In this document: positions 10,584 through 50,887 of the stretch, piece by piece
Numbering within the stretch: position 1 is the stretch's first letter
How the letters are laid out: every line of letters begins with the position of its first letter
Assembly: GCF_036588685.1 (NCBI RefSeq)
Contig: NC_086377.1
Span: forward strand, 17,794,001-17,858,000
Direction: 5' to 3'
Origin: Mytilus trossulus
Taxonomy: Eukaryota
Length of the DNA stretch: 64,000 nt
Program-made: the position numbers and the translations under genes
Notes under the pieces: model-generated
Databases searched by the model: none
What the model saw: only the letters and a program-made list of their open reading frames with translations
Told to the model about the DNA's origin: nothing

Positions 10584-10755
10584 CAGGGGCGGATCAAGAC
10601 ATTTTAAAAGGGGGGGGGGGTGTTCTAACCCAGGACAAAAGGGGGGGGTTCCAATTACATGTCCCCATTCAAATGCAATGATCGTCCAAAAAAATAAGGG
10701 GTTCCAACCTCCGGAACCCCAACCCCCCCCCCCCCCCCTTCTGGATCCGCGCCTG
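10584..10755. mobile_element. MITE with CAGG termini (hAT-like) and 5-bp TSD
   Basis: TIRs CAGGGGCGGATC and GATCCGCGCCTG; ATTGT on both flanks. Confidence 0.75.
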
Positions 10756-11434: not shown

Positions 11435-11580
11435 TACTCACTCTACTGCCATATCAAATGAATGAAACTACCTCGTTTGAAATACTTCGCAGTTTGTCTA
11501 TTTATATTAAATACCTTTATGACTGATATTTAACAGTATCTCATATCTACTTTTAAATACCTTCATGATAGATAAATATA
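11435..11580 (-). promoter_or_regulatory. TATA promoter and short non-coding exon 1 of HSPA12 copy A
   Basis: TATAAATA at 11506-11499 (minus); GTGAGTA donor at 11441-11435; acceptor at 9331-9330; block conserved in three paralogous positions. Confidence 0.7.
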
Positions 11581-14500
11581 AATATATAGATAGATTATGT
11601 TGTTGTTATTTTATGTACTAACAAGAGTGCAGTGATTCGAGAAGAAAAAGTGCTACGCTATCTGTACGTGTAGGACTCTTGCAACAATTCTTTCTAAAAT
11701 CTGATTACCGTCTTGTAAATGAATGAAATATTCGCCACTGGGCGATAAACCCCAAGTTTTTGGTGGAGAACGTGTTGCTAAGTCTTTAGTTTTCTATGTT
11801 GTTTCTTGTGTACTGTTGTTTGTCTGTTTGTCTTTTTTTAATTTTTAGTCATGGTTTGTCAGTTTATTTTCGATTAATGATTTTGACTGTTCTTCTTGTA
11901 TCTTTTGCCCCACTTTTAAACCATACAACAAGGAATAAGTCAATCAAATTGTGATGGCAAGACTCAATGTTTATTTTTTTTTAGTTATATTTTTCTATTT
12001 TAGTCTTCGTTTTTTACTAGCTTAGTAGTTTTCCTCAGTTAATTATTTGGGTTTTTTTTATTGAACGAAATTGCCTTACAAACTTAAGAGTAATTTATTA
12101 TAAAACAAAATTCACTCGTCTTTATCAATATTTTTTTTTTATATTAGAAATTGCCTGTACCAAGTCAGGAATATGACACCTGTCATCCATTCGGATGATA
12201 TGTTGAGTTTTTGATTTTACCACTTGATTAAGGACTTACCGTTTTCGTTTTTTTTTGTGATTTTACTTTTGACTGTAATTAACAAATCGACTAAGGTTTT
12301 AACTCGGGCAACGTTGACCTGAAATTGATGTTTTCATTTTGGTCATAAAATCCCTCAAGTGTGTAGGTATTTGAGCGTCCTTTACTTCATAGTTTTAGAT
12401 AATCATGAACGTTCCTGGTGAAAGTTCAATGTTATAATATTTCTACCGTTATGTTTTTTTCACATTTCTCTTGAAATTTTTCCATTTGTTCTTTCTATCG
12501 TTAAAAACGGCATCAAATTTACCTGTGGTTGCTATAAGACCCTTTAATGTACAGTTGTTGTTATGTACTCTCTACGAGGGCCGTATTTCTCGATTAGATA
12601 GAGGGGAGCTTCGCAGTGAAATATGTCATTTGTACCACAGACAGCTTAGAGTGCATATCAGCAAGTTAAGGAGATAAACAATCTATCACGAATAGAAAAA
12701 GTGAAGTGTTGCTAATGTATTGCGTTTCACATCTTTCACTATTATTGTGAGATTTTTTTTGTTAAGATTACCATGCCTTAGTGCTTTCCAGTTGTTCTTA
12801 TATTTCTTATTAAAAATGTGATATGAAATTATCAAAAAATAAAAATATTGAATGTGAATTATTAGTTATCGTCTTTTGTGGCTTTCTTTTAACTTTATCT
12901 GATCTTTGGGGATATTTGTTCAATTGGCAATAAGCAGACCACATCTCCTTATTTTTATATAGTGGCAATAGATCTGTATAAGTTACATGAACACGCATAT
13001 AGGCTATCCAGTGGAAAGGAGTACATCCGAACCGTTACTTCGAATATTTCAATCCTACTAGTATATGGGTTGATTTAAAATACATTTACAATTAAGCAAT
13101 GGATTTGGTTTTTAAATTTGATAGAATGGACTTGTTTGCGACTGTCATACAAGAGGATTCGCGCTATAAAAGCAAGGTTCAATCCACCATTTTCTACATT
13201 TATAAACGCCCGTACCAAGACAGGAATATGACAGTTGTTGTCTATTCGTTTGCTATGTTTTATCATTTGATTTTGCTATTTGATTAGGTACTTTCCGTTT
13301 TGAATTTTACTCGGAGTTCGGTATTTTCGTGATTTTACACCAGTGTATAGCGTATTTTTAAAGTTTATAGGATCTCATTCATTTTCATACTATTTACCTG
13401 TGTTTACTTGTAATATTCTTCTTTTTCTTCCTGGTAAAATTAGCGGAAATGAAATGAATATTTTGGCGCAAATGAAATATTATTTTCACGCAAATGAAAT
13501 GACTCTTGACGAAAAGGCAAAGCACAGATTCCTACATTATGAGATTTGTAGATCAAATAGTAAAGTTTTATGTTGGAGTTCACAGATTTTTATGTTAATA
13601 ATGGGATTATTAGGGATTATGCTGTAACGACTATAAACAAATAAACTAATGTAAATCAAGGTGAAAATCAAGAAAAAAGTTCCTATTAAATATCGTCATA
13701 AAAGCGGGAGATTTGGCTAGTCACAAAACAAGGTACAACCCACCATTGTTTCTTAAAATTTCCTGTACCAAGTCCGAAAAATAGCAATTGTTATCCTATA
13801 GTTGAAGTTCGTTCCTGTGTGTGTTGCATTGTCGCTTGGTGGTTTTTTCCCTTTAGTGTTTCTGTTGTTTCGTTGTTTTCCTCTTATATTCGATGTGTTT
13901 TCCTTAGTTTTAGTTTGTAACCCGGATTTGTTTCCACTTCATCAATTTATGACTTTCGAATAGCGGTATACTACAGTAACTGTAGTCTTAATTCCTATCA
14001 TTATTTTAAAAGTTATGATTATTGTAACAATGCTTGCAGTTGGAAATTAACAATGTATCCTTAAATACAAACATAGAATAGTAAGTGGAGAAGAGAATAC
14101 AATTGATTTTTCAGTCTTCTAGAAATGTCTTTGAATGGCTGTCTGTAAAAAATGTATAATTTAAGCTATATTTCCATGAAACTAAAACAAGTCTTTACTA
14201 TTTTGTGTTGAAATAAGCATAAACAATTGTATTGCCCAGTTTTACACATTTCTAGAAGTATTGCCCAGCCCGGGCGGGTAATACTTTGCAACCCTGTGTA
14301 CACTCGGTGAACTATTCTAGATGTTGGGTCGATATCATAATACAAACATAATCAGAGTTTAGCATGGTGCCCATTTCGCTTAACTAGTATACATTATTGT
14401 TTAGGGACAAGCTGAAGCCCGCCTATGGTTCACATAGACAAAAACAAGTGTATGTGTTTCAAGTGCGGGATTTTCTCGCTACATTGAAGACCTATTGGTG

Positions 14501-14712
14501 ACCTTGTACTTGTTTTCTACTCTTTGCCGGGTATTAAACATTTGACAAATTTCCCGTTTCTACTATCAATTCCATACATAAACCATTAAAGAAAACTCGT
14601 GTTCAAGAATAAACAGAAGATAATACACTCTTTAGTAGAAATTCAAATACAAGATAAAAAAGAAGTGTTTACACTTTAGTTGATACTTCAAACTTAACAT
14701 TTCGCAATTTGA

Positions 14713-17700
14713 TTAAATCAGATTAAATTTTGCCGATATTGCCTCCCCCGAGTTTTTATCGTGCGCCTTCAGGTCTATTTCCGTATTTCCGAGAACAAAT
14801 TCAACGTCTACCCAACGCCTCTCTTCGCATGTGTCAGAAAAAGTAATTGTCGGTGTACATAACAGGAAGCATCTATCATCGTCCACATATCCCGGTGTTG
14901 TCTCTTCAGATACGTACACCATAATGTCCATCTTGTCTTGATGTTTGTAAGGTGTAAAAAAAGATTTTTTAACTATCATTCCAGCTTCGGCGCTTTCATC
15001 TTTCCCGATAATGAGAGAAAAAATATTATCACACCTTTCTTCCCCTTCCATAATCACATAATGTTTTCTATCATATTTCTTTTCGTTCCAAGCTACATTT
15101 GTTTTGACGCCATAACTACACCGCATGACACGTGATTGTATATAATCTGGCTTATGACCGAACAAAACGGCCCCTTTCAGCACTGACAGACCAGCCTCTT
15201 CTGGAATTATAATTCTCTGATCCGGAAATGCTTTTCGAACTGCACTTTGCATCAGTTGACATTCTGAGAATCCTCCAACCATTAAAACATGTTTGACCTC
15301 CTTTAATGACCTATTTCGTAAAATCTCTCTCATTAGAGATATAACACCGTCAATTGAAGGGGTAAACAACTTTTTAAAAAACTCAACGTTTATACGGATT
15401 TTATCATGTGCTAGTTTAATGTCTTTTGAGTATGGCGAGCTTTCCAGTAGAGACTTAAAGTCTTTTTTGTGAACTTTCTGACACTTTTCATCGAGCGCCA
15501 CGACAGGGATAGACATTGTTACTTTAATTCTTGTGCTTGTTTCAACTGTTCTTTTCTGGGATTCGAACTCTCGTACAAGATCCAAATATGCAAGAGGGCT
15601 TTCTTTCTTTAATGAATTCATTGTTGTTTCTCCGACTATTTCTTCGAACAGTTCTAAGAAGCGTTTATCAATCGATGTACCACCACAATTGTTACCCATA
15701 GCTCTGTGTTTTTCTTTTAATTTACCATTTGCAGCTTTCCGGTGAACCGTTATATCTGCAGTTCCACCTGAAGAAAACCAAAACAAATATATGGATTCAT
15801 TACTTTCCATTGGACACCAATTTTTGTGCATTTCGCGGGTATTGGTGAACCTATACAATTTATAGAGTTGGACGGAGAGTTGTCTCATTGACACTCATAA
15901 CACATCTTCTTATATCTATTTGGCAAAACCACGAACATTAAATATTCACGAACTTGTAAGGTTTCCTTAATTCACGAAAATTGACACCTACGAAAATGAA
16001 CCCATAGTAGAAAAAACACGTTAATTTTGAATTTATCATCTATACAGTCAAAGGCAATTAAAAAACTTGCATCTTTTTAAGAAGAAAGAGAAGTCAAGAC
16101 ACAATTTGTATATGTTTATGAAATAACCTACTGAATTTCAAAATTAATTAGCTACTGTTACTCTCTTACTAACTTATCAAAACTGAGGGGATAAATGATT
16201 TTAACAAATCTAGCAACAAAGACCGGCATCAATATATCCATGAAACTGGGTTTATTTTGGCATAGCAGTATAATATATTTACGCTCGAACAAACTCAAAA
16301 GGGCAAAAAAGATATGAAAGACGATTCAAGAGAGGATAATCCATCCCGTATGTTTATCATATTTAATGTTGTTAGTTATATGTATGTAATACTATACCTC
16401 CTAGATCAACAACCATATACTCTGTCCCCTCGGCTGGCATGGTAAATCCAGATTCCGAACCCTTTAGTTTCTCAGTGGATAAGTATTGGCAGAAGATTGA
16501 AGCAGTCTCTGGTTCCAGCGCAAGGATCAAATTATTAGTGGGTATATCAGCCTTGAATAAATGGAAATCAGAAAATACATACTGATATATCTATATTCTA
16601 AATATAAAAAATTAATGGAAAATTAAATTTTTAAAATATAACTAGCACTGTACTTACAGTGAAACAAATGCATTGCCAGCTGAAGGACGCCTCCTGGTGC
16701 GGAAATTTCTCGTTACATTGAAGACCTGTTGGTGACCTTCTGCTGTTGTTTTTTCTATGGTCGGGTTGTTGTCTCTTTGATACATTCCCCATTTCCATTC
16801 TCAATTTTATTGAACATACACAATTTTGTCATTCTTAGTGCTTCACTACAAGATGTATGCACCGTAAATAAATCAGACAATGTTTTACTTCTAAAGGTCA
16901 AAGACTTAAATCAAGGTAAGTGTGATCATTTGGCATACACAGTTTTTGGTAGGGTAACGGTTAGTGTTAAAAAGTCATGCTTCGAACATATATGAGTCGT
17001 GGTGTATTGGTAAGCGCATTAGACTTCAAACACAAAAGTTCTGTTTCGATCCTCGTTCCAGGGAGAACATTTTAGGGACTGAATTTGCGGCTCCCCGTGA
17101 CACCATTTGCGAGTATGGTCTTGATAAACGACGATAGTCCGTCGGATGTGACAAAAAATTACTAATCTGTGTTAAGAGAGATAGCAACATGTATTGCACC
17201 CTTGTAGATTTCGGAAAAAAAAAACAATGATGCATCAGAACACCTCGTTTGGTCAACCTAAGATCTAAGGTACAGACAGACAGACACACACAAACCGAAA
17301 AACAGATAGACGGATTCCTATATCCAAACTTTGTTCGCGGGTGGGGTATTAGAATGTGGGACACTGTACGTCTACACAGATTGTCTTTATGTCTCCTTTA
17401 AACTGTAGGGTTAAGGTTTAAAAACAATCTCCGTAATAACTATATTGAAGCAGGATCTGCTTACCCTTCCGGAGCACCTGAGATCAACCCTAGTTTTTGG
17501 TGGGGTTCGTGTTGTTTATTCTTTAGTTTTCTATGGTGTGTAATGTGTACTATTGTTTTTCTGTTTGTCTTTTTCATTTTTAGCCATGGCGTTGTCAGTT
17601 TGTTTTAGATTTATGAGTATGACTGTCCCTTTGGTATCTTTCGTCCCTCTTTTAACAAGGAAATAAATGTGTAACAGCGATGTAATTCAAAGTGAAACTA

Positions 17701-20700
17701 CTTGCAAACATATTTAATTTGGCATCACATTGCCGTATTATTGCTTTAAACTAAGAAAATGTGCAGACAGTTCTTAAATTCACAGAAAATAAGAATTACT
17801 ATATACAGAATATTTGACATTCATAAATAAATTAAAACTAAAATTATTGTGTAGATAGTGTACTTTCCAAATATCTGCTATGTTATTTAGTTTCTGAATC
17901 TTCGTCGATAATTGAAAACCAAATTATGAGCTTCAAACATCAGAATCTGAACATTTTTTTAATTTCATTCGCTTACCGCTTCAGCACAAGACCTCATAAA
18001 CTTCTTTGCTCGATCTGTCCAAATTGCAGGAACTGTGAGGACCCATTGAACCTCGTTATGGCGGACTACATTACCACGTGTTTTCAAAATATCTAACAAA
18101 TGGTTCACTAAATATTGGATTGAAAATTTAAACACATCAAAAGCTGGCAATCGTTTTGTACCAGTTATATCATCTAACATCATGCCACTTGTGATATTCT
18201 AAAAAGAGAACAAAAAGCATGTTATTTGATTTTGCTTCGCATCACGTTGCGGAGCTATTAGTTGCAGAAGACATACACGCCATCTTGAAATAATTACTTA
18301 TCGCATAATATGTTCTGATTGGTTATTAAAAAAGAAGGTGTGGTATCATTGCCAATGAGACAACTCTCCACAAGAGACTCAAATGACATAGGAATTAACA
18401 ACTATAGGTCATCATACGGTTACATTATTATGTGTTCGCTACGTTTGTTTTTGCTGTTTATCGGATAGGAATCCATTATTTTTAACACACGTGTTGCAAT
18501 TAAAATGTTGCACGCTAGCATCTTCTTTTCTATTGATTGTTTTATAACAAACGGTTTCAACAGCTATTGTTGAAAACCTAATCAAGTCCATGCAAATTTA
18601 TTTATTTTAATTTTAGAAAGAACACACTAGTATATGTAAATAGTAAATGTAGAAAGATTGAAAGAGAAATATTTCCTGCTTAATTTTCAAATGAGTATAC
18701 ATGTATTTAATAAAAGAGGACAACGAACCGGTAATTTTATACTGCTTTTTTATGGTTCCGTTATTGATGGAAATTCATTTTATAGTGGTCTTTTAAAAAC
18801 CTTTTAATCTTGAATTGGAGCAGTAAACATCATAAAAAATAATCATGATGAAAATGAGAATGGATATATTACCAAGAGACAACAACCTGACCAAAGGACA
18901 GAAAGTTGCCGAAAGCCACCAATGACCCTTTAACGCAGTGAGAAAATCCCGCACCCGTAGGTGGGCCTCAAATGGTCCCTTAATAAAAAAAAAAACTGTA
19001 CTAGTTTAGTGAAAAATGGACGTCATACCAACTCCAAAACTTAAATACGAACTGAAATGAAAAAAACCCCAAAAACATACAAGACTAAGTTAGTTGACTC
19101 TACCTGTGACTTTGGACAGGCGTATAAATGCGGCCGGTTCAATCAAGTTTTGTGAGATCTTAACCTTCCCCCTATACATCTAGCCTACTATGTAGAATAT
19201 AGAAACACATAGCAATACTCACAGTAAAACTCAGTTCAAAAGAAGTCCTAGTCCGAATTCAGAAAAGGTAACAAAAGAAATTTATCAAAATGACAATGAA
19301 ACATAAATTAACAAAGGACTACTATTAGTTACTGACATATAACAAAGAAGATGTGGTGTCATTGTCAATGAGATAACTCTCCACAAAAGACCAAAACATT
19401 AATCATGATAATGGAATATGTAGACAGCTTTCTCACAAGCAAACAGCCCCGAACTGTAAAAATGTAGGGACATGCCAACTCCAGACCTCAATTAAACTGA
19501 TTGAAAGATCATGTCTTCATCATATGAATATCAAGCACATGTACTATTCTTGAATATGTTTTGACAGAAAGAATAGTCGGAGTATTTTTAATTGCTTCTT
19601 GCTGAAGCTTTGACGCATAAATCAATGCTACGATGTATTAAAATCCAATTACGACCGAAAGAAAAGTCGAAAATAGACAAGGAACTAGAGGAGGATACTA
19701 ACGAATTCCGTAATATGTGAAAATTTGAACTAATAATTTCAGATCATCTAAATGGTTTAGATATGTGTTTGTATGAATCTAAAACTTGTTTTGTAATCTA
19801 ATTATTGTGCACATGTGATTTATTTCCTTAATGTATAACGATTTAATGTATAACAGGAAATCAGTTTGTATTAACAAAAAGTTCTTATCTTTAATACTTT
19901 GTGTCCTTGTTGCAATTATAATCAAACTATTTTGCAATGACCACCTTGATACACCGCCTTGTTACATCAAATGTATGTTTCATTATAATACGTTATTCTG
20001 ATTGGCTACACTGCAATCTTGCGTTATTCCTTAATCAACTTCAATACACATTAAAATTTACCATTCATGATGACAAGAGGTCCCACAATAAAGTGCACAG
20101 GTGTATCAAATAAAAACTTGATAAAAATCGTGTATTCATGATCCTAGCTTAAATATGTAATTATAAGCATTGAATGCTTCTTTTTGTAACTTCATACGGT
20201 AAAAGCGAATTGACCTATAGCGCAAATTTTAGAATGAAGCGCTTCCGCGATTCATAAAACTGAAATGTACATCGGTCAACGCTTTTACACCCAAATGAAG
20301 TTACAAAAAGCAGCATTTAATTCTTAAATAGATTTGGAGGATGAAACTGGATAGGGTTTTAAGTTCGGTAGCAAAAATTACAACCATATCAAGACTTCAA
20401 CATGTAAATGAATATGAATATGTATAAAAAAAATAGTTCCAGGTTAACGAGACAGACTCACTGGGTCAGATATTTTAGACGATATTTAACTAGGAAACAG
20501 TCAGTAGGATCACTTGCCAACTACAAGGACAATTTCAACTGAATCTTGGCCGACCATGCAGTCCACTATTCTTAAAAATAAAAGCCGCGCGGCGTGGTTT
20601 TTTTGCAGAGAAGAAGCAAATAACAATTTAAAAATCTATGTTAGTTGACTCTACCTGTGATCGTAGTTAACTGACTCGAAGAAAAGGGATACAACAATTG

Positions 20701-21354
20701 TAAAAGGAGTGCTGGTTAACGAACACCGAGATGCTAGAACTATATATTGATCAATTTTTAAAAAATAAATAGTTGGAAGATTGTCAATGAGACAATTCTC
20801 CGCAAGGGGCCAACATGAAACAGAAATTAACAACTATAGGTCACCGTACGGCCTTCAATAATGAACAACCCCCATATCGCATAATCAGCTATAAAAGGCC
20901 CCAAAATGACAATGTAAAACAAATCAAACGAGGAGACTAACGGCCTAATTTACACATATATGTACCAAAAATGAAGTAAAAACAAAAATATAACGTATAA
21001 ACAAACTATATAAAAATATTTCAACAATGATAAACAAAGTACCTTATTATTATGTAGATTCATTTTGAAACGTTCAAAATAGTAGTATTCCTCGTGTTCT
21101 CCATCTAACAATAAATCTGCCCACTGGTTCTCTGCATCGTACCCGAAGGCAACACACTCTCGTTTACCATCTAATAAAAGACATGTCGGAGTTTTCATTG
21201 ACATAAATTGTCGACTTCCGGCCTTCCATACAGGGTTAGCTTGTATCTTTAATGGATCTTTAACGAATTCATCTCTCATGGAAAATGAATAACCTGAGTA
21301 TGTCGTACCAAAGTCTAAAGCAGCAACCATAAGGTAATTCCCTGTTTCTGCCAT
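14713..21354 (-). CDS. HSPA12: Heat shock 70 kDa protein 12-like (HSPA12 family), copy B, 580 aa, intact
   Basis: Coding exons 21354-21043, 18198-17977, 16551-16398 and 15767-14713, GT-AG, same phases as copy A, 1743 nt; same Hsp70-12 motifs. Confidence 0.92.
16994..17215 (+). mobile_element. tRNA-derived SINE (degenerate)
   Basis: A-box-like TGGTGTATTGG, B-box-like GTTTCGATCC, then a body containing GATAGTCCGTCGGATG that resembles bivalve SINE central domains. Confidence 0.5.
17449..17653 (+). mobile_element. PLE 3'-end repeat family R3 (also 11755-11917, 28611-28791 minus, 35380-35716, 58848-59054 minus, 61020-61505)
   Basis: GCAGGATCTGCTTACCCTTCCGGAGCACCTGAGATC...GGTATCTTTCGTCCCTCTTT. 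The 61020 copy is preceded by degenerate RT C-terminal coding sequence (HDFLDRG, LKSSLR, HHDLVDRYG). Confidence 0.65.
18850..19540 (-). mobile_element. Diverged Naiad-type PLE 3' UTR (family R2), sense within HSPA12-B intron
   Basis: Reverse complement aligns with 36480-36941: 3' arm of the SECIS, damaged twister module and terminal module. Confidence 0.7.
19973..20330. mobile_element. Non-autonomous element with long terminal foldback (related pieces at 28113-28200 and 59595-59745)
   Basis: ATTGAATGCTTCTTTTTGTAACTTCAT...ATGAAGTTACAAAAAGCAGCATTTAAT inverted repeat that recurs elsewhere in the window. Confidence 0.55.
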
Positions 21355-22284
21355 CGCTTATTATTATTGTCCTAAAATCAGAAGAATCACCGTTGTGTTG
21401 AATATTATTAAATGTAAACTATGTAACAACGAGTACAGTAATTTCAGCTTCATCATATAAGTTGCCTTTCACAAGCAGTTCAAAATTAAAATGGAATAAA
21501 AATAAATGGGGAATATGTCCATAGGAAACCCATGGTGCCTAGCATTCAAATAAAAGTTACTAAGGGACATATTTTGCATTTGTTTGCATCTGTCCTTAGT
21601 CAGGAACCTGATGTTTAGTATTCGTCGTCTGGTGTGATTTATAAGTGTTTCTTGTTTCGCGTTTTTTGTTTTGTTTTATACCGTAGACTTTCCTGTTTAT
21701 AAAAAAGAAGATGTGGTATGATTGCCAATGAGACAACTATCCACAAAAGACCAAAATGACACAGACATTAACAACTATAGGTCACCGTACGGCCTTCAAC
21801 AATGAGCAAAGCCCATACAGCTTAGTCAGCTATAAAAGGCCCCGATAAGACAATGTAAAACAATTCAAACGAGAAAAAAATTGAATGGTTTTACACTTGC
21901 CATTTTAGGGGCTCTTAATAGCTTGCTGTTCTGTATGAGCAAATGTTCCGTGTTGAAGGCCATACTGTGGTCTCTAATGGTTTACTTTTACAAAATGTGC
22001 CTTGGAGGGAGAGTTGTCTTCTTGGAACTCATACCACATCTTCTTATATCTAAATCACAAGAACGATGAAAGTGACGCTACGCAAGTACAAACTTGATTT
22101 ATGTTTTGTGGTAATAAGCATTGTGTATAAGATTCATAACATTTGGTTGAGGCAAACTTAAGAATGTCGTTTGTCGCTATGTTACATATTTGTGTTGTCG
22201 ACGTATATTTGTTCCACCTAACAGAAGTTCCAACTGAAACTTTGTTACAAATAATGTCATAAAAATTATTTTTTCTCATGTTTG

Positions 22285-22902
22285 ACAGGTGAAAAGCAAA
22301 ACAAACTACGCACATATTACAAGTTAAAAGAGGAATATAAACCTGAGACTTATACAAAGTTAAATATCCCAAAACAATATATTAGACAATTATGCAAATT
22401 AAGAATTTCTAACCACAATTTACACATTGAAAAAGGCAGATATGATAAAACGCCTTTGGATCAAAGAATATGTAAACATTGTATGGATAACAAAATTGAA
22501 GATGAGTTTCATTTTATATGTGAATGCAACCTCTATCACGAGGAGAGAGAAAAGTTTTATGATGACATTGTTAATATTATACCACGTTTTTGCAATTTAG
22601 ATAATTTTGATAAATTTAAATATTTAATGAACTGTTCGGAGACTAATGTTCTCACCAGATTTCTTATATATATAGACAAATGTATTTTGATTAGACATTC
22701 ATCAGTGGGAATAATTGCATAATATTGAAGTTTGAGTTCTGTCCCTTGCTTGTGATACGTGTCAAAATTGTTGGCTGTTATGTTTTATTGTTGTTTTGTT
22801 TTGTATATGTTTTTTTTTTTATATGTGTTCACATGTTTCAGCGATGATCCTTTTGTACTGGATTTTATACTGAATAAAATTAGTTAGTTAGTTAGTTAGT
22901 TA
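22285..22902 (+). mobile_element. 5'-truncated non-LTR retrotransposon (ORF2 C-terminus, 3' UTR, (TTAG)n tail)
   Basis: LRISNHNLHIEKGRY...RICKHC...IEDEFHFICEC C-terminal CCHC region; AATAAA followed by TTAG repeats at 22880-22901. Confidence 0.85.
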
Positions 22903-28068: not shown

Positions 28069-28807
28069 TATTGCATGCATTGCAAGTATTGCAGGGTTAT
28101 CCTATAAACGATTTATTTAAGAATTGAATGCTTCTTTTTGTAAATTTATTGGGGTGTAAAAGCGTTGACCGAAGTACATTTTGTATGAAGCGCGGAAGCT
28201 TGACAAGCTTGTATGACACATGAAGTGGTTAACTAAAAGCAATCAACCTGATCAGATGATATCATCAAGAACTACTAGATTCATTATTGCGAAAAATGCA
28301 ACACGTTGCGAAAAATGCAACAGGGTTATCATGGTAACCGTAATTATCGCAATAATTTAAACTCGCATTTTGATAAATTTGTAGTTGAATTAAACTGGAT
28401 TTTCCTCAAAATCGCAATAATAAATGCACGCAATAATTTCTGAATTTACAAGATTAGTTCAAAAGGAATATCGATAGATGCTGGAAAATAAAATAACACT
28501 TTACAAATTGTGTTCGACAATGTTCGAAGCGCTTTTCTAAATAAACCTGTACCATGCAAGCTAACACCCGGCCATAATGTAAAGGTCAGCAATGCCTAAG
28601 TTACTGCATAAAAGAGGGACGAAAGATACCACCGTGACAGTCAAACTCGTAAATCTAAAACAAACTGACAACGCCATGGCTAAAAATGAAAAAGACAAAC
28701 AGAAAACAATAGTACACATGACACAACATAGAAAACTAAAGAATAAACAACACGAATTCGAACCCCACTAAAAACTAGGGGTGATCTCAGGATGATGATC
28801 TTTATAT

Positions 28808-31800
28808 ACTGTTACTGTTACTGGTAATTTCCTCATCTCTCAGGAGCACTCCCAAAGGGATACATAGATTTTAAAGTATAGTCTAAGAAAGGATCTAAGA
28901 AAGGATATATATATATACAACTTACGTTAAACTGTACAGTTTCCCACCACCCTTGGCTATTGCGTATACTAAAAGCATTGTTCATTTGGCATACTTTAAG
29001 TCTATTTACACACTGTCTATAATATAACTTCTTATGTTTCATCTTTTAGGAGATAAGTTCTCCTCACATGTAGTCCATAACATAATGTCCTTGTTATTTG
29101 TTCAATATCAGTATAGTTGTCCTTTTTTAAGCGAATAGATGTTCTCACACTTTCACATGTAGAGTCAAGAATAAGTTTCATTAGTTGTCTATTATCAAGA
29201 TCTTCGTATGTTCCTTTTTTAATGTTTTCTAGATAGCATTTTAGAGTGTTCAAGTGATTTCTTCGTACATCCTCTAATCTATCACATATCAATAAAAAAT
29301 GTTCTAAATCTTCTGTATCATTTTGGCACATTTTACATTTTGCTGTTTCTTTATTATTACTAAACTTGGCTTTATTAACTTGTAAAGTATAAGTTCCTGT
29401 TAACAGTCTGGCTTTTACTTCAGCTTTTTTCACCTCAATATGACAGTTTGGTACAGATTTCCATATCTGATGAGCATTTTCTATAGCATATGACTGAATA
29501 TTTAGTAGTTTCAAGGTTGACTTCTGTTGTTTCTCTTCTTGCCACTTAACATCCCAGTAGTGTATTATATGTTTCTTTACTGTTTTTTTCCATTTCAGAG
29601 TATCTAATTCATTCTCTAACAATGTTTCAATTTCTGGTAAACCATATTTCTCTAATCTCTGAATAACCTTAATAATGTAACTTTTACCATTGCGTTTTGC
29701 CATACTTAATTGTCTTTCTAAAATTTTGAATTCTAAAGTTTCTTTGTTGTGAAGGAGATTTCCTAGAAATGTTAATATCAATCGGTCTACTACAACCTCG
29801 ACTGGCTTCACTCCTAGAAGTGAGTAAGTGGCAATATTTGCTGTCCTGTCTGGAAGACCCTGAATTTGTCTACATACTTTCAACTGTAGTCGCTCTAATT
29901 TCAGGATATCTGACTCAGTGAAATTCATTACTTCTATTCCATATAATGCTCGTGGTATGACATATGTTTTCCATATTTTATAGGCTACTATTGGAGACAT
30001 GCCTTTCCTTGCATGTAGTCCAGGTCCAAGTAAAGCATACAGAGTTTTCCTTGCCAGTTTTAGTCGATCTTCAGTGTTCAGCTTGTTTTTACTATTTCGT
30101 ATTAGTCCTAGATATTTTGTTTCACTCTTTTGGGTTATCTCATCTTTTCCAAGGTATACCGAGAAGTTACTTTGACATTTAGTGATCGGTACCAAATCTG
30201 ACTTGTCTGGGTTTATAGTTACTATGTCTCTTTTTGTACAGTTTTCAACAATGTCTAATAATGCTTGTACTTCATGTTGGTTTTCTGCCAATACAGCTAT
30301 GTCGTCAGCACACGTTGGGGCCATTTCTTTTATGTTTCCTATTTCAGCTCCAATTTCAGATCTTTCTAATGCTTTCAGTATATTGTTATTATATCTCTTA
30401 TATAACATTGTTGACAATTTTGCTCCTTGTCTTACATCTTGTGTTACTTTCACTTCACCTGAGAGACTATTATTCCATTTCACTTGTATAGACATATTTC
30501 TATATAAATTACGTAAAAGTATCCAAATTCCACCACAAATTCCGTCATGATATAAGTTATTAAAAAGTATCTCATGATTGAGTTTATCAAAGGCCTTTTG
30601 GGCGTCAAGGGTAAGTAGAAAAAGTTCTCTCAAAAGTTCCTTATAACAGTCTGCTGTTTGTGTAACAATAAACGCTGTATTTAGTGATGATGCCTTTTCT
30701 GTGAAACCACGTTGTTATTTACTTTGTTTTGGAAGTAGAGTTGGTTCAATTCTGTCTTTTAATAGACTTTCAAGTACAGTTGAAAAAGTATTAGTAACTG
30801 TTATACCCCTGTAATTTTCTGAGTACATCTTGTCTTTGCCGGTTTTTGATACTGGAGTAACTGTTCCAGATTTAATTTTTTCTGGCACATCTAGATTGTC
30901 AAAGATTAAATTGATGATAATTACTATAAATGGTATAATCTCTTCTGGTCCATACTTGAAATGCTCTGAGCTAATTCCATTAACGTCTGGTGACTTTCCT
31001 GTTTTCATCTTAGAGATTGATGACTGGACCTCATCTACAGTTGCTCGTTCTATTGGTTGTAGATTTTCTTTTTCTATAGATTCAATGATTTCATTTTTGA
31101 TCTTTACGAGGTTAAGTTTTTCTGCACCAGTCTCATTCTCAATGTCGTTATTAAAAAGTTCTGAGAAATAGTCCCTCCATCCATCTGAAATTTCCTCTAG
31201 GTTATCTAAGGCGTTTTTATTGAATACCATAATGTCAGGATTTGAAGTATCAGATCTTCGTTGGTTTTGAATTAATTTATGAAATAGTTTGTTATCACTT
31301 TGGCTTGATTTCATAATTTTTTCTGTAAGTGCTATTCTTTGCGAAGCATGTGCCCTACGTTATGCACTCCTTAATCGTCTTTTTGCAGTTTGCATTTCAT
31401 TTTTGAGTTCGTAATTTTGCGTATCTTGCTTCCACATGTAGAAGGCTTCTTTAGATTTTCGAGAAGCATTGTTTATATCTTGGTTCCAAATACTTTTGCC
31501 TTTTGTTGTAACAACTGTTTGTTTTCTATACTTTGGGATAGAAAGGTTTCCTGCATGATGTAGGATATTCTCTAAATTTTCGATTGCTTCTGATGTTGTT
31601 TGAATTTCAGTTAGATCTATTTCTGTCAGTTTAGTTGTGATGGCTTCTTGGTATATTTGTTTATCACATTTTCTCCAATCAGGACGTTTAACTATTTTTG
31701 TTATTTGCCGTTTTTTTCTATTCAATGTTCCTACAACTTTCGCTATGACAATTGTGTGGTCAGAAACATTTAGAGGCTCCATGTCTGATATAGATACTGT

Positions 31801-34800
31801 GTACCTTATATTGTTCTCAGCTCTCTTGTGAAGAAAATAATATATCTGTGATTTAGATATTTTATTATGGTTATAGAATGTTGGTTTAATTGGATAGTTG
31901 TGTACCATTTCCAATTCGTTGTTGGTTAAAAATTGTTTTAAAATCATATCTCTTGATCTATTGTCTCTATGTAATGACGCATTTAAATCTCCACAAAGCA
32001 TTATTTGATATTTTTCCTGATATTTTTCAATTATCTCTTCCAGCTGAGCTAGCATATCTTTATATTTCTCATCACAATTTTCATTTCCTGATGGCATGTA
32101 AACATTTATCAAGCATATTGGGTGCTCTTTCGTATTCACTGTTATGCGTTCATTTCCATCTGGCATATATTTCACTGCATTGTCAATGTCTTTTCTCCAG
32201 AACGTAGCCACCCCCCCCCCCCCCCATAACCTCTTCCACATATAATATCTGAAGTGTCGATATAGTCATCAACTGATTTTGCCTCTACTTCATGCATATT
32301 ACTGACAGCATTCAGGTAATATTTCTCAGATGAATATAACCAATGTTCTTGAATACAAAAAAAATCACATCTCTTTAGTACTTGTTTCAAATAAAGTTCA
32401 TTTGACTTAGCATTTTGTATATTTAATGTACCTATAGTGATTTCCTTTTTTGCGGATGATTCGAGGTTGAGGCTCGGCCGTGCTCTAAAAAAGAAGTAGA
32501 ATCTCTTTGTTCTTGATTTCCTGAGTTTGAATTATTTTCAGTTACTTTTACACTTTGTATGTAAGTGTTTTGCTCACTTTCACTTGAGTCTGAATGTTTC
32601 TCTTTGGGTCTATCACAGTTTGATTTCAACTTGTGTGTATTGTTTTTAAGAAGTTCTCTTGGATATTTTCCTATCGGAATAACTCGTGGTTGTTGCGTTT
32701 TAACTTTCTCTAAATTTGGCAGTGTCATACTTTCTGGTGCTTTCACCTTACTTTGATTTAAAAATGTTGGTATCTGGTGGAAATCTCGTTTATTTTGCTG
32801 ATGATATTTTTGGTGGTCATTTTGTCGCACATTTCCAAAATGATTTACCATAGGCATATTTGCTAGCTGTATACTACTATGTTGATTGTTCATTCTATAA
32901 GAATTCACTTGGTGCATGAGATTTTGTCCTTGAATATTACGTATTTCTTGTGGTTGTTGATATGGCCCTGGAAATCTCTGTGTCAATATTGGTATTTTGA
33001 TTTCAATTGATATTGACCTTGCATGGGTATATGTGATTGTTGAAATGGAAATACCTTTGTTAATATAGGTCCCAACTGATTTTGTCCTGCAGCAGGCATT
33101 TTTGGCTGATTCATCATATAATTTTGGTTCTTGTTTTGAGTATTTTCTACATTTTGTACATATCTTTGTTGATTTATTAGTGGTTCTGTCTTGTGCTCAG
33201 TTATCAACGATTCATGATTTTGTAAGCTTGGCCGATAATTTTTCACTAATTTTTCATTGTTATTTTTACATGCACATTTACTCTCATGTTGTTCAAAGTT
33301 CGGTCTATTATCATGAAGTTTCATCATGTTTATTTCAGTTTTTAGATCTCTGATCTCCAGTTCATGCTCTAGTTTTATCTCATGAATGTCTAATTTATGC
33401 TGGAATTCCATAGTCATTGTTGTAAACTTGGCTGATATTGATTCTTCTAGCATTTGCAATTTAGTTTTTATAGTTTTTATAGCTTTTGTAAGGCAGAATT
33501 TTGCCATTGATGAATTTCATCTTTTTCTTTGCCTGTTGTTTGTTGTTTCCATTTACAGTGAATGAGGCTGATTGTATTTTCATAGTCCCTGTTTTGCTCC
33601 TCTAGCATGATAATTCTAGCTCTGCTAGCTGTGAGTTGTTGTTCTAATTCTATAGTTTCTTTCTTTTTCCATTTTTTGGCCTCGGTTTAAGGTTTATCGG
33701 GCTATGAGAAGGAGGGTCGCTTACGTGAGTGGGTAAGTTTTCATTTAGTTTATCTGGCCCCACTGTTTTCACTTTAGTTTCCTCTTCATTTATATCATTT
33801 ACCAGTTGTTCTTGATTGTCTCGTTGATTATAGGATACATCTACTTCTGTTTTTGATTTTGATTCATTTTCTTGTTGTTGATTGCTATTGTTTATAGCTA
33901 TGTGCACATTTTCTTCTTCTTCTTCTTCAATATTGAATGTTACATTTAGAGGTGTGTTTGTTCCCTTTCGGTCGTTCTCTAGTTCAAACTGTATAAAACT
34001 CTCATGTATAAAGTTATCTTCTAAGTTTTCACACAATGGGCAAGTATATGTCAGGTTGGTGTCTTCAGACTGTTTTTCAAATTCTTCTTCAGTGAGATTA
34101 CTGCATTCTTTATGTAACCACATACAACATTTTGTACATTCAACAGAGTTCTCATTGTTGACATCATAAAAACATGCTGGACATTTGATATGATTAATTT
34201 GTGGGTCAATATTTTCTTGTTCCCTTTGTGTTTTATTAGTTTCAATTTCAGGCGTAGGAATGTTCTTTCTTCTACCTATTATTTGCAACTTGTTTGGATT
34301 TTCACATTTTAAATCATTATCTTCTGTATTATGGTTCTTACTACTATATTCAGTCACTGCCTGATTTGAAAGTACAAGCTCGCATATTTCTATTATCTTT
34401 TCATTGATTTGTTTCACATTTGCCATATCTATAGTCTTTATGATTTCTCGGAGGTCTTCACAAATAAATTGCTGGTATTGACGCCCATTGATATCCATTC
34501 TACTAGTAGTATTGAACATGTTGATTCTATACCATTGTCTACATTTAATATTCATATTTTCTTTCGGTCTAATTGAAAACGATTCCTCTACTATTGCTTT
34601 TCCAATTGTCTTATTGCTAGTTTTACTAGATTTGACAGTTTTATTGTATGTTTTATTCTGATGTTCATCATACTATTTGATTATAGCCCTGTTATATACT
34701 TCATATGCAGCTGGTGTAAACGACATCACCAAAGTACCTCTTTTAAGTTCGATTTCAACATCAAAATCTCTTTTCGCAGCATCTATCTTTTTAAGTAATG

Positions 34801-35280
34801 CTGTTCTTTCATTAAGTTTATATTTCATCGATGTTTCATTTCTAATGGGTGTGAATATCTCTTTGCGTACAATCGTTCTGTTTGTCTTCCGCACAGTAAT
34901 GGGAGACGCCATATTTAAAAGTTTGACACTTCCGGTTTTGTATTTTAAAAGTTACTTCTCAATATATATATATTCTAGTGCGCTATTTACGAAGTGCTCA
35001 TCAATAAAAGTTTTTAAAAACGATAAATGTCAAATATATACACTAAAAGCGAACACACAGGATTATCTACAGGTTTAGGATAAAAGCACCGGTAAAATTT
35101 TTTCAACCATGACGCATTTAAAACCTTAAAATGTCATTTGTTGCAGGAGGTTAAAACTCTAAAATGCACTACGAAGCGTGAGAAAGTGTGTAGGGTGAAA
35201 CTGTACAGTTTTTTGTAAAACCTTTTGTGCTTTAAAACAACTAAAACTCTAAAAATATTGGGAGTGCTGTGCAGGTGAAC
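28808..35280 (-). mobile_element. Near full-length decayed non-LTR retrotransposon, RTE-X-like (ORF1 with PHD finger; ORF2 APE endonuclease, RT, CCHC)
   Basis: ORF1 34912-32432 has one nonsense codon, two frameshifts and a PHD (CPAC...CTKCCMWLHKEC...CPLC). ORF2 ~32486-29032 has TLNIQN, CIQEHWL, GDLNA, SDH, DAQKAFD, RQGAKLS, CADD and CKMC...EHFLLIC, with a poly-G frameshift at ~32211-32225 and stops at 31360 and 30715. Tail is CAGTAA repeats. Clade assignment is inference. Confidence 0.88.
32486..32492 (-). promoter_or_regulatory. Candidate -1 programmed ribosomal frameshift heptamer U UUU UUA linking LINE ORF1 to ORF2
   Basis: ORF1 phase TCT TTT TTA GAG; the -1 frame continues RARPSLNLESSAKKEITIGTLNIQN into the endonuclease with no in-frame ATG. 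Confidence 0.6.
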
Positions 35281-42099: not shown

Positions 42100-45000
42100 T
42101 CATATTGATATTTTTTTCCGTTTCAATTTAGGTTTAGCATTTTCATCATCCTCTTTAATTTGTCTCTTTTTTCTGCGTGACCTAATTGAACTTATTTCAT
42201 CAGGACAAGAATCACTTTTGATATGTTGTTCTTTTTCTTCTTTTTTCTCTTCTTCTGTTGTAGTCGTCTTTATTATTTTCCTCCTCTTTTCTTGACTCCC
42301 TTCATTTTCTTTCAATTTCTTTTTCTCTTCTTCTGTCTTCTTTATTGTTTTCTTCCTCTTTTCTTGACTCTCTTTATTTTCTTTCAATTTGTTTTTCTCT
42401 TCTGTCCTTTCATGCATTTCTCTGTGTCTTTTAATTTGGTCACTCCTTCTAAATTCCTTCCCACAAATTTCACATTCATAAACCGTCCCAGTCCCGTGTT
42501 GGAATTTAACATGTCTCTTTAAATAATACTGTAAACTAAACTGTAAACCACATTCCTTACACGTGTATGTCTTATCTTTGGTGTGTGTTTTCCTGTGTAC
42601 ATTTAATACACAAGAATGAGCGAACGTTTTATTACAAATCTCACACTTATATGGGCGAGCCCCTGTGTGTATGACCTTGTGATTCTGCAGGGATCTTTGA
42701 TTGACAAACGTTTTATGACAAATATCACACTCTTCTATTCCTTCACCTGTATGAATGTTTTCATGATAATTTAAATAACTTTCCGTTACAAATCGTTTTC
42801 CACAGACCTGACACTCAAAATCCTTGGCACTTTCGTCATGACTTTTAGCATGTGTTTTGATATAATTTTTTCGATAATATTTTTGACATATATCACACTC
42901 AACCAGTTCCGATTTCTGTTTCTGTCTGGTTGTCAATCCATTACTTTTGTTGAGCGGAGAAAGATTATGTTTTTCATTGATATGAACCTTCAGATATCTG
43001 TTCTGTGTATAAACCTTATGACAGAAATGACATTGGAATGTCCCTGGAGCATGGGATCTTTCATGTGCCTTTACCGATTTCTCTGTTTTATAACTTTGAC
43101 CACAAATCTTACAAGAGAAAAGCCTATCCTTATTGTGTGACTGGATGTGATTATTTAAATGATCTTTCCTGATGAATCCTTTCCCACAAATATCACAGCT
43201 GAAGTTAGTCTCACCATTGTGTTTCTGTAGGTGGATAGCCAACTTATATTTCTGCATAAATGTAATACCACAGATGTGGCAGACATGTGGACGGTCACCT
43301 AAAAGTAGAAAATACATATATATATGTAAACCTGTGTACTCATATGAGACAGACATGTGGACGGTCACCTAAAAATAGAAAATACACATATATATGTAAA
43401 CCTGTGTACTCATATGAGACAGACATGTGGACGGTCACCTAAAAGTAGAAAATACACATATATATGTAAACCTGTGTACTCATATGAGACAGACATGTGG
43501 ATGGTCACCTAAAAATAGAAAACACACATATATATGTAAACCTGTGTACTCATATGAGACAGACATGTGGACAGACACCTAAAAGTAGAAAATACACATA
43601 TATATTTAAACCTGTGTACTCATATGAGACAGACATGTGGACGGTCACCTAAAAATAGAAAACACACATATATATGTAAACATGTGTACTCATATGAGAC
43701 AGACATGTGGACAGTCACCTAAAAGTAGAAAATACACATATATATGTAAACCTGTGTACTCATATGAGACAGACATGTGGACGGTCACCTAAAAATAGAA
43801 AACACACATATATATGTAAACCTGTGTACTCATATGAGACAGACATGTGGACAGACACCTAAAAATAGAAAACACACATATATATGTAAACCTGTGTACT
43901 TAGATGAGACAGACATGTGGACGGTCACCTAAAAAAAGAAAATACACATATACATATGTAAACCTGTGTACTCAGATGTGGCAGACATGTGGACACTCAC
44001 CTAAAAATAGAAAATACACATATATATATATATGTAAACCTGTGTACTCATATGTGGCAGACATGTGGACGGTCACCTAAAAATAGAAAATACACATATA
44101 TATATGTAAACCTATGTGGACAGTCACCTAAAAATAGAAAACACACATATATATATGTAAACCTGTGTACTCATATGAGACAGACATGTGGACGGTCACC
44201 TAAAAATAAAAATACAAATATATATGTAAACCTGTGTCCTCAGATGTGACAGACATGTAGACAGTCATCTAAAAATAGAAAATACACATACATATGAAAA
44301 CCTGTGTACTCAATACTCAGATGAGACAGACATGTGGACGGTAACCTAAAAATAGAAAATACACATATATATCTACCTGTGTACTCAGATGAGACAGACA
44401 TGTAGATGGTCACCTAAAAATAGAAAATACACATATAAACATATGTTTGCCTGTGTACACAGTTGTGACAAAACAAATGGATGGTCACTTAAAATAAGAA
44501 AATACACATTATATATATGTTTGCATGTATATACAGATGTTACAAATGTGTGGACAGTATGCACGTGTACACAAATGTTAAAAACATGTAGACAGCCGTA
44601 AAAACAGTCCTTTAATTACACACTGATTACCACATAAATGACAAAAAGCATTGATCAGAATTAAAATAAGATATAAGTCCATAATATGCTTCGTTAGAGA
44701 TAAAACTCTTGGATTTTTTTTTAATTTGGGGGGAATACTTATAATAATACATGTATCTCTGGATATATCTACATTTATTTTTCTCCATCTGACGAGTTAA
44801 GCCTTCTCCAACTGATTTGTATAGTTTGTTCTTATGTTGTACTGTTATACCACTGTCCCAGGTTAGGGGAGGGTTAGGATCCCGCTAACATGTTTTACCC
44901 CGCCACAGTATTTATGTATGTGCATGTCCCAAGTCAGGAGCCTGTAAATCAGTGGTTGAAGTTTGTTTATGTTTTACATATTTGTTTTTCATTCATTTTT

Positions 45001-48000: not shown

Positions 48001-50887
48001 TTCTCTCTCTCTCTTATTGGTAAGGTTTATGTTTAACTGTGTTCTCTCTCTCTTATTTGTTAGGTTTATGTTTAACTGTGTTCTCTCTCTCTTATTGGTT
48101 AGGTTTATGTTTAACTGTGTTCTCTCTCTCTCTCTCTTATTGGTTAGGTTTGTGTTTAACTGTGTTCTCGCTCTCTCTTATTGGTTAGGTTTATGTTTAA
48201 CTGTATTCTCTCTCTCTCTTATTGTTTAGGTTTATGTTTAACTGTGTTCTCTCTCTCTTATTGGTTAGGTTTATGTTTAACTGTGTTCTCTCGCTCTCTC
48301 TTATTGTTTAGGTTTATGTTTAACTGTGTTCTCTCTCTCTTATTGGTTAGGTTTATGTTTAACTGTGTTCTCTCTCTCTCTTATTGGTTAGGTTTATGTT
48401 TAACTGTGTTCTCTCTCTCTCTTATTGGTTAGGTTTATGTTTAACTGTGTTCTCTCTCTCTCTTATTGTTTAGGTTTATGTTTAACTGTGTTCTCTCTCT
48501 CTTATTGTTTAGGTTTATGTTTAACTGTGTTCTCTCTCTCTCTCTCTTATTGTTTAGGTTTATGTTTAACTGTGTTCTCTCTCTCTCTCTCTTATTGTTT
48601 AGGTTTATGTTTAACTGTGTTCTCTCTCTCTCTCTCTTATTGTTTAGGTTTATGTTTAACTGTGTTCTCTCTCTCTTATTTGTTAGGTTTATGTTTAACT
48701 GTGTTCTCTCTCTCTCTCTCTTTCTTATTGGTTAGGTTTATGTTTAACTGTGTTCTCGCTCTCTCTTATTGTTTAGGTTTATGTTTAACTGTGTTCTCTC
48801 TCTCTTATTTGTTAGGTTTATGTTTAACTGTGTTCTCTCTCTCTCTCTCTTTCTTATTGGTAAGGTTTATGTTTAACTGTGTTCTCTCTCTCTCTTATTG
48901 GTTAGGTTTATGTTTAACTGTGTTCTCGCTCTCTCTTATTGTTTAGGTTTATGTTTAACAGTGTTCTCTCTCTCTTATTGGTTAGGTTGATGTTTAACTG
49001 TGTTCTCGCTCTCTCTTATTGGTTAGGTTTATGTTTAACTGTGTTCTCTCTCTCTTATTGTTTAGGTTTATGTTTAACAGTGTTCTCTCTCTCTTATTGG
49101 TTAGGTTTATGTTTAACTGTGTTCTCTCTCTCTTATTGTTAAGGTTTATGTTTAACTGTGTTCTCTCTCTCTCTTATTGGTTAGGTTTATGTTTAACTGT
49201 GTTCTCGCTCTCTCTTATTGGTTAGGTTTATGTTTAACTGTGTTCTCTCTCTCTTATTTGTTAGGTTTATGTTTAACTGTGTTCTCTCTCTCTCTCTCTT
49301 TCTTATTGGTAAGGTTTATGTTTAACTGTGTTCTCGCTCTCTCTTATTGTTTAGGTTTATGTTTAACTGTGTTCTCTCTCTCTTATTTGTTAGGTTTATG
49401 TTTAACTGTGTTCTCTCTCTCTCTCTCTTTCTTATTGGTTAGGTTTATGTTTAACTGTGTTCTCTCTCTCTTATTGGTTAGGTTTATGTTTAACTGTGTT
49501 CTCTCTCTCTTATTTGTTAGGTTTATGTTTAACTGTGTTCTCTCGCTCTCTCTTATTGTTTAGGTTTATGTTTAACTGTGTTCTCTCTATCTTATTGTTT
49601 AGGTTTATGTTTAACTGTGTTCTCTCTCTCTTATTGGTTAGGTTTATGTTTAACAGTGTTCTCTCTCTCTCTTATTGTTTAGGTTTATGTTTAACTGTGT
49701 TCTCGCTCTCTCTTATTGGTTAGGTTTATGTTTAACTGTGTTCTCGCTCTCTCTTATTGTTTAGGTTTATGTTTAACTGTGTTCTCTCTCTCTTATTTGT
49801 TAGGTTTATGTTTAACTGTGTTCTCTCTCTCTCTCTCTTTCTTATTGGTAAGGTTTATGTTTAACTGTGTTCTCGCTCTCTCTTATTGGTTAGGTTTATG
49901 TTTAACTGTGTTCTCTCTCTCTTTCTTATTGGTAAGGTTTATGTTTAACTGTGTTCTCTCTCTCTCTTATTGGTTAGGTTTATGTTTAACTGTGTTCTCT
50001 CTCTCTTATTTGTTAGGTTTATGTTTAACTGTGTTCTCTCGCTCTCTCTTATTGTTTAGGTTTATGTTTAACTGTGTTCTCTCTCTCTTATTGTTTAGGT
50101 TTATGTTTAACTGTGTTCTCTCTCTCTTATTGGTTAGGTTTATGTTTAACAGTGTTCTCTCTCTCTCTTATTGTTTAGGTTTATGTTTAACTGTGTTCTC
50201 TCTCTCTCTTATTGGTTAGGTTTATGTTTAACTGTGTTCTCTCTCTCTCTTATTGGTTAGGTTTATGTTTAACTGTGTTCTCTCTCTCTTATTGGTTAGG
50301 TTTGTGTTTAACTGTGTTAGCTCTCTCTTATTGGTTAGGTTTATGTTTAACTGTATTCTCTCTCTCTCTTATTGTTTAGGTTTATGTTTAACTGTGTTCT
50401 CTCTCTCTCTCTCTTTCTTATTGGTTAGGTTTATGTTTAACTGTGTTCTCTCTCTCTCTTATTGGTTAGGTTTATGTTAAACTGTGTTCTCTCTCTCTCT
50501 CTTATTGGTTAATTTTATGTTTAACTGTGTTCTCTCTCTCTTATTGGTTAGGTTTATGTTTAACAGTGTTCTCTCTCTCTCTCTCTCTTATTGGTTAGGT
50601 TTATGTTTAACAGTGTTCTCTCTCTCTCTCGCTCTTATTGGTTAGGTTTATGTTTAACTGTGTTCTCTCTCTCTCTCTTATTGGTTAGGTTTATGTTAAA
50701 CTGTGTTCTCTCTCTCTCTTATTGGTTAATTTTATGTTTAACTGTGTTCTCTCTCTCTTATTGATTAGGTTTATGTTTGTCATACACTTATTCAGAATAC
50801 TGTGCCTGCACTGACTGCTTGTAAGATTACCTGAACTTTATCTGTAATTATGTCCATTCTTTCTGTCAAATCTGTTCTTCTGTTGAC
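42100..50887 (-). CDS. C2H2 zinc-finger protein (12 fingers, K/E-rich basic C-terminus); 5' end uncertain
   Basis: Exons 50887-50831 (57 nt), 46362-45258 (2 fingers) and 43298-42100 (10 fingers); GT-AG sites and phases consistent; the splice rebuilds the HTGDRPH linker. The start is either the ATG at 50857 or in an unidentified upstream exon. Confidence 0.85.
43271..44600. repeat. ~70-bp tandem array built from the intron/last-exon junction of the ZF gene (~18 units)
   Basis: Minus-strand unit ...TATTTTCTATTTTTAG|GTGACCGTCCACATGTCTG...; exact 70-bp period over 43299-43929, degenerating distally. Confidence 0.92.
44850..44955 (+). ncRNA. Degenerate twister-like module (family R1)
   Basis: Closing stems CCACTG/CAGTGG and CAGGTT/AGCCTG; GGGGAGGG; TTACCCCGCC (UAA mutated); TGTCCCAAGTCAGG. 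Confidence 0.6.
46379..47673. repeat. 46-bp intronic minisatellite (~18 copies) interrupted by two insertions
   Basis: AAAACATTATCAGTGTAATCTTTATATCATGGCTTCTTTGCAATAT repeated; insertions at 46457-46658 (R2) and 46863-47131. Confidence 0.92.
47875..50778. repeat. ~2.9-kb intronic satellite, ~38-48-bp unit with variable (TC)n
   Basis: AACTGTGTTC(TC)nTTATTGGTTAGGTTTATGTTT repeated about 70 times. Confidence 0.95.

Follow-up and report, generated by a model that had tools for sequence, protein, structure and literature searches.

A conserved in-phase U UUU UUR heptamer at the ORF1/ORF2 junction of a decayed bivalve Proto2 LINE and its relatives points to -1 frameshifting

The window analyzed here comprises 64,000 nucleotides of Mytilus trossulus DNA (RefSeq assembly GCF_036588685.1, contig NC_086377.1, positions 17,794,001 to 17,858,000), and all coordinates below refer to it. 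A LINE occupies its minus strand between position 34912, the ATG of ORF1, and a (CAGTAA)n tail near 28810; the parts of the element are collected in Table 1. The translations, read by eye, also reveal Hsp70-12-like exons (6000-21400, minus strand), a zinc-finger ORF (42100-43400, minus strand) and another LINE 3' fragment (22255-22722, plus strand), and a long tandem repeat was recognized by eye at 48400-50200.

Table 1. Parts of the LINE and of its ORF1/ORF2 junction in the window
Feature	Position	Strand	Description
ORF1, decayed	32432..34912	-	One internal stop, several frame breaks
ORF2	29032..32441	-	APE endonuclease, reverse transcriptase, C-terminal Cys/His region
3' UTR	28807..29031	-	Terminal hairpin-like region and (CAGTAA)n tail
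ORF1/ORF2 overlap	32432..32531	-	ORF2 in the -1 frame, no ATG
Slippery heptamer U UUU UUA (T TTT TTA)	32486..32492	-	In ORF1 phase; predicted -1 shift site
C-rich motif CCGAGCCUC	32469..32477	-	At +9; putative unstructured stimulator
ORF1 stop TAG	32432..32434	-	Within the first beta-strand codons of the endonuclease

ORF1 is composed of an N-terminal alpha/beta domain, a PHD-like finger, and coiled-coil-like and low-complexity parts. The N-terminal domain (34912-34340, minus strand), modelled from a relative (L257), folds confidently with a pLDDT of 90. Its likeness to KA1/TBP-like domains is weak (the best match has Z 7.6 and an rmsd of 4.1 across 97 residues; the RNA-binding KA1 domains of METTL16 and TUT1 have Z of about 6) and offers a lead only; a Foldseek search with this domain returned no significant match. 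ORF2 matches the Exo_endo_phos_2 (E 3e-9) and RVT_1 (E 5e-18) domains; its frame is interrupted near 32210, at a poly-G run, and contains stops at 31362 and near 30717.

Proto2 elements are defined by two ORFs, the second of which encodes an APE endonuclease and a reverse transcriptase (RT), and the window element displays this organization. Its closest database protein is from Mytilus edulis. The RT is about 76% identical (140 of 184 residues, counted by hand) to B.platifrons_113_LINE, which is labelled Proto2 in Table S7 of Martelossi et al. 2023 (PMC10294476). Judged by this likeness to one Proto2-labelled element, rather than by a tree with named references, the element is a decayed bivalve Proto2 LINE. 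The RTE-X label given by the sequence-only reading is replaced accordingly, the nearest labelled relative being Proto2 and the RTE-X-like RTs forming a separate clade; Proto2 elements are sometimes labelled RTE-X (PMC10294476). Four short DNA words of the window family had no match in supplementary file 24 of the same article.

At the junction, the ORF1 frame reads TCT TTT TTA (Ser-Phe-Leu) on the minus strand, so that the heptamer at 32492-32486 lies in ORF1 phase, as the sequence-only reading had described. The -1 frame is open from 32531 and reaches ITIGTLNIQN, motif I of the endonuclease, at 32441 after a 15-codon linker, while the preceding stop in this frame ends 40 nt before the heptamer. 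The reading frames thus bear out the earlier description of a -1 slip leading into this motif, with a stop about 40 nt upstream and no ATG ahead of the motif. The first in-frame ATG of ORF2, at 32297, lies downstream of both motif I and the QEHW motif, and a start there would cost the enzyme two catalytic motifs. The position of the ORF1 stop (-83/-89 nt from the catalytic Glu) is common to many relatives. By itself the heptamer is unremarkable, since TTTTTTA occurs 114 times on the two strands of the AT-rich window; the sense strand of the 6.2-kb element contains it only twice.

Relatives of the element were sought with the endonuclease only, never with the junction. A tblastn scan located two intact relatives (L001 and L002) in two bacterial assemblies (G001 and G002) that include animal repeat contigs; these assemblies hold over a hundred animal LINE contigs, a case of host contamination. 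An endonuclease profile search gave 113 matches in G001 (about 108 of them retrieved) and 16 in G002, and the QEHWL motif pattern added 120 metagenome loci. The viral contigs searched contained no relatives. The main count covers 200 loci with a profile score of at least 25, which collapsed at 75% identity into 139 clusters. The 98 clusters with an unbroken endonuclease, together with the window, were placed in a tree, which does not include the other 41, short or broken ones. Four groups were obtained: clade A with 58 families including the window, clade B with 7, clade C with 28 and clade D with 5. A tree of endonuclease plus RT gives SH-aLRT values of 100 for clade A and 96 for A+C, and another such tree gives 1.0 for clade A; the support of clade A in an RT-only tree is low after rerooting (0.278).

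ORF2 lies in the -1 frame in 54 of the 58 clade-A families, and 51 of them carry an in-phase TTTTTT[A/G] inside the overlap (40 with A, 11 with G). A UUR leucine codon invariably occupies the A site (40 UUA and 11 UUG, never UUU or UUC), and the 11 families ending in G fall outside the textbook X XXY YYZ consensus, in which Z is A, C or U. These 51 families, 37 of which come from G001 and G002, 13 from metagenomes and one from the window, have endonuclease identities of 23-73% (median 33%), although 37 of 51 represent just two assemblies with probably similar hosts and, because of shared descent, 51 families are not 51 independent events. A T6 run is found 90-230 nt before the catalytic Glu in 50 of 57 clade-A elements, every run in the same phase, versus 3 of 39 elements of clades B, C and D in the same fixed window, all in other phases. 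Elsewhere in these elements an in-phase heptamer was encountered at none of 20,067 ORF1 positions and at one of 34,643 ORF2 positions (1 in 54,710 overall), and of 69 Phe-Leu pairs found within ORF2 bodies a single one is encoded by the heptamer. Conservation of the heptamer across the relatives is far beyond chance and beyond coding needs. The expectation that heptamer, phase and -1 overlap would recur in related elements is thereby upheld.

The surroundings of the heptamer are conserved as well. Upstream of the heptamer the ORF2 frame is shut after 1-29 codons in 49 of 50 families, and the ORF1 stop follows 25-133 nt past the heptamer, often inside motif I. No in-frame Met precedes the endonuclease in 40 of the 51 heptamer families, and the family shows neither the continuous ORF nor the in-frame AUG that would have spoken against recoding. 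A Met is present in 11 of 51, and in 7 of these it overlaps the last A of the heptamer; by comparison, it is found in 7/7 families of clade B and 27/28 of clade C, sister clades that are devoid of the heptamer and together have a Met in 34 of 35. In a set of 33 left-out clusters scoring at least 60, the heptamer is in phase in a further 13 and out of phase in 3 (broken copies), and an in-frame stop is present in 6. Several database proteins, some of them named Mytilus, show a matching Phe-Phe ahead of motif I.

A -1 overlap with no AUG, placed behind an in-phase U UUU UUA, suggests that ORF2 is likely translated by a -1 slip as part of a fusion. On sequence grounds we put the probability that programmed -1 frameshifting produces an ORF1-endonuclease-RT fusion at about 0.87. 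A minority of ribosomes would slip back one base at U UUU UUA, with tRNA-Phe and tRNA-Leu re-pairing on UUU UUU, and tandem or P-site slippage may take place on U UUU UUR. Most ribosomes would continue to the ORF1 stop 60 nt on, which would set a fixed ratio of ORF1 product to fusion, as for Gag and Gag-Pol. The invariance of the UUR leucine in the A site hints that slow decoding of this codon may help the shift; in HIV, decoding of UUA by a rare tRNA-Leu modulates shifting, according to the accessible part of PMC6547452. The sequence-only reading had envisaged a PHD-endonuclease-RT fusion. Anatomy and conservation support the endonuclease-RT portion, the fusion protein being predicted from them, whereas the PHD finger of the window ORF1 is weak (20.9 bits in Pfam, under the cut-off of 24) and a pattern detects it in 13 of the 29 ORF1s examined.

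Because the copy in the window carries several stops and frame breaks, as the earlier caveat about decay frameshifts had anticipated, the overlap itself might be a decay indel, the active element having one ORF or an AUG. Contigs from four runs (X1, X5, X6 and X14) were aligned to positions 31250-33800 of the window, a comparison with other copies that the sequence-only reading had called for. X1 record 1, X5 record 18 and X6 record 21 span the junction without an indel, and the gaps of the junction-spanning contigs are all explained by indels elsewhere (32141, 32209/32210 and 32995); the matches listed for X14 include no piece that spans the junction. The window stop at 31362 and the breaks at 32995 and 33472, on the other hand, differ in all four runs. 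An indel-free junction in three runs, where the other breaks differ, indicates that the overlap belongs to the family, and it recurs in the 54 families noted above, many with intact ORFs of 1100-1200 codons. Together, the contigs and the family-wide overlap refute an origin by decay. None of the substitutions listed for the run contigs falls within the heptamer, and base changes there may still be present among a further 189.

The other alternatives accept the overlap and account for it differently. ORF2 could be translated by termination-reinitiation or non-AUG initiation, the U-run being a cis-signal or a conserved Phe-Leu/Phe-Phe coding sequence; reinitiation alone has been demonstrated by experiment for LINE ORF2, as far as the available text of PMC2881922 and PMC5972666 goes, and the Met of 11/51 families and the closeness of the ORF1 stop to the endonuclease start agree with it. 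Selection on the protein would permit TTC and CTN codons, however, and Phe-Leu pairs elsewhere are almost never written as the heptamer; the stop lies 25-133 nt past the heptamer, often within motif I, and the nested families described below, which have exchanged the heptamer for known readthrough motifs, suit a fusion and not a restart. This explanation is therefore improbable. An RNA polymerase slipping within the T-run, with the gain of one U, would yield the same fusion from a few transcripts, but it needs neither phase nor purine, and yet the phase is fixed and A or G comes next in 51/51 families. The T-runs are mostly just six or seven T long, and slipped RNAs would return as single-ORF elements, none of which was seen among the 58 families; such slippage is very unlikely. 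Even less credence is given to splicing, in which the U-run and an AG would form an acceptor joining ORF2 to upstream ORF1 sequence. The window does read TTTTTTAG, and in P0001, a gene model of Mytilus edulis, ORF1 and ORF2 are joined here, but the AG is present at the site in just 18 of 51 families, no joint falls at the site among the run-contig matches listed, and an acceptor would require no fixed ORF1 phase. None of the four alternatives (decay, reinitiation, splicing, transcriptional slippage) explains phase, purine, rarity of the heptamer and readthrough swap together.

A GC-rich island had been remarked downstream of the heptamer, and a stimulatory stem-loop or pseudoknot proposed there; -1 signals of this type usually have such a structure 5-9 nt past the heptamer. 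The downstream region of the window folds no better than shuffled sequences (z -0.2 to -0.6), and the 51 families give no structure signal either, with mean z values of -0.28 and -0.19 versus 0.02-0.11 for the controls; a crude scan of three sequences for pseudoknots found none. The stimulator is probably not a local hairpin. In the 51 families the first 30 nt after the heptamer are rich in C and poor in U. GCCTC starts at +11 to +13 in 27/51 families versus 58/3549 background windows, and the wider pattern CCNRGCCUC, defined post hoc after viewing the data, occurs in 22/51 families, at +7 (16) or +9 (6), versus 10/4458 background windows. Since its reading frame differs between lineages, the C-rich motif looks conserved as RNA sequence, and this motif at +7 to +9 is put forward, tentatively and with considerable doubt, as the best stimulator candidate. 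Conceivably, GCCUC might act by base-pairing to 18S rRNA.

Long-range pairing was evaluated separately and found no support. Duplexes between the shift region and the 3' end of the element amount to -12.6 kcal/mol for cognate and -13.4 kcal/mol for non-cognate combinations (13 elements, permutation p 0.86), and pairing elsewhere in the element is no better than controls. The 3' motifs fold into local hairpins, and a number of elements (L302, L303, L313, L318, L319, L246, L260 and others) share the same ending, two short hairpins followed by a microsatellite tail.

Seven clade-A families lack the in-phase U6R heptamer. In L123 the -1 frame opens at a different canonical heptamer, C CCU UUU; the site of L014 reads just T TTT TCC, and the sequence of L009 ends before any shift site. 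Tandem repeats open in both the ORF1 and ORF2 frames stretch from the junction to the endonuclease in L014 and L009 (about 650-660 and at least 488 codons). In the remaining four (L138, L099, L084 and L155), ORF1 ends with A-UAG-G in frame with ORF2, three of them having no Met; the three of these families that can be placed constitute one group inside clade A with a support of 100. Four short loci outside the tree (L177, L178, L185 and L186) carry an in-frame UAG CAA UUA, UAA CAA UUA or UAG CAA CCA, that is UAG/UAA-CAA-YYA, at the ORF1/ORF2 junction, about 170-110 nt before QEHW. UAG-CAR-YYA, as in tobamovirus, and UAG-G are listed as type I and type III readthrough contexts, respectively, in the text available from Firth and Brierley (PMC3542737). 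These relatives likely read through a leaky stop rather than frameshift. Since nested relatives swap the shift site for in-frame leaky stops, the fusion itself appears to be what selection keeps.

A similar arrangement is seen in RTE-X-like elements of G001 (L235, L237-L241 and L265-L294), a set defined by an RT motif like that of RTE-X-labelled rows, with two more added by motif, and not deduplicated. Twenty-four of them form a clade with a support of 98.2. An in-frame TAG separates ORF1 from ORF2 in 25 of 26, followed by G in 21; a Met is present in just one of the 26, and one consists of a single open frame. The clade is thus a candidate, on present sequences, for clade-wide stop-codon readthrough. 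Clade B (L083, L085, L087, L131, L133, L141 and L146) shows another layout: in all seven, ORF2 is in the +1 relation to ORF1 and the ORF1 stop is preceded, within a few codons, by an AUG, which makes them termination-reinitiation candidates.

U UUU UUA is also the shift site of HIV-1 gag-pol, in which a structural ORF is likewise fused to an RT ORF, and the alphavirus 6K/TF site of Semliki Forest virus, with its unstructured 3' stimulator, sets a precedent for a site without structure (both in the consulted sections of PMC5009743). Unlike these, the site described here belongs to a non-LTR element with no protease seen and no strong downstream hairpin, and it admits UUG in 11/51 families. The in-frame stop contexts of gammaretroviruses (UAG-G) and tobamoviruses (UAG-CAR-YYA) reappear in the nested and RTE-X-like relatives, the window element itself being predicted to frameshift. 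Human L1 and silkworm SART1 also possess a bicistronic RNA with ORF2 dependent on ORF1 translation, but they reinitiate (PMC2881922, PMC5972666 and PMC5009743, in the portions available) and yield a separate ORF2 protein, whereas the Proto2 element is predicted to make a fusion. Among LINEs, a parallel is provided by TRE5-A and TRE3-A of Dictyostelium, which are of the APE type and whose ORF2 is stated to depend on a -1 frameshift; they are of the amoeba L1 clade, and the passage in PMC5911963 names no slippery site. For Proto2, by contrast, the signal itself can be named, and it is conserved in an animal clade within the RTE superfamily; the sister Proto2-like sub-clade C has a Met in nearly every family.

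The word 'frameshift' is absent from the main text of Martelossi et al. 2023 (PMC10294476), and the accessible text of PMC5006619, PMC1965478, PMC11203168, PMC3905857 and PMC8226300 makes no mention of LINE ORF2 frameshifting. Our literature search, with most subscription papers and Repbase Reports outside its range, retrieved no report of -1 frameshifting for Proto2, RTE-X or other animal LINEs. Retroviral-type recoding in LINEs is thus barely documented before, TRE5-A/TRE3-A having already been stated to use it. By a broader reading, to which we grant slightly better than even odds, much of the RTE superfamily, namely RTE-X and one sub-clade of Proto2, would have no free ORF2 protein and would make a Gag-Pol-like fusion by recoding, swapping a -1 shift at U UUU UUR, UAG-G and UAG-CAR-YYA, the menu of retroviruses and RNA viruses, with the shift driven by an unstructured C-rich motif and not by a hairpin or pseudoknot.

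Experiments have settled the mode of ORF2 translation only in L1, SART1 and a handful of other LINEs, and in each case it was reinitiation; the Proto2 junction offers a short, defined signal, open to testing, that suggests another mechanism in a large animal clade. The AUG-bearing sister clades serve as natural controls and the readthrough relatives as natural swaps. If the prediction is correct, the fusion would offer a simple explanation of cis-preference and the ORF1:ORF2 stoichiometry, annotated Proto2 and RTE-X ORF2 proteins would have wrong N-termini, and dozens more natural eukaryotic frameshift and readthrough sites would be at hand, possibly with a new unstructured stimulator.

The window also contains a second decayed LINE (27436-26816, minus strand), whose L1-like ORF1 ends in TAG G. 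The motif-I-like KILCLNVC at 26860 is in frame with this stop, a layout shared with the RTE-X-like readthrough candidates.
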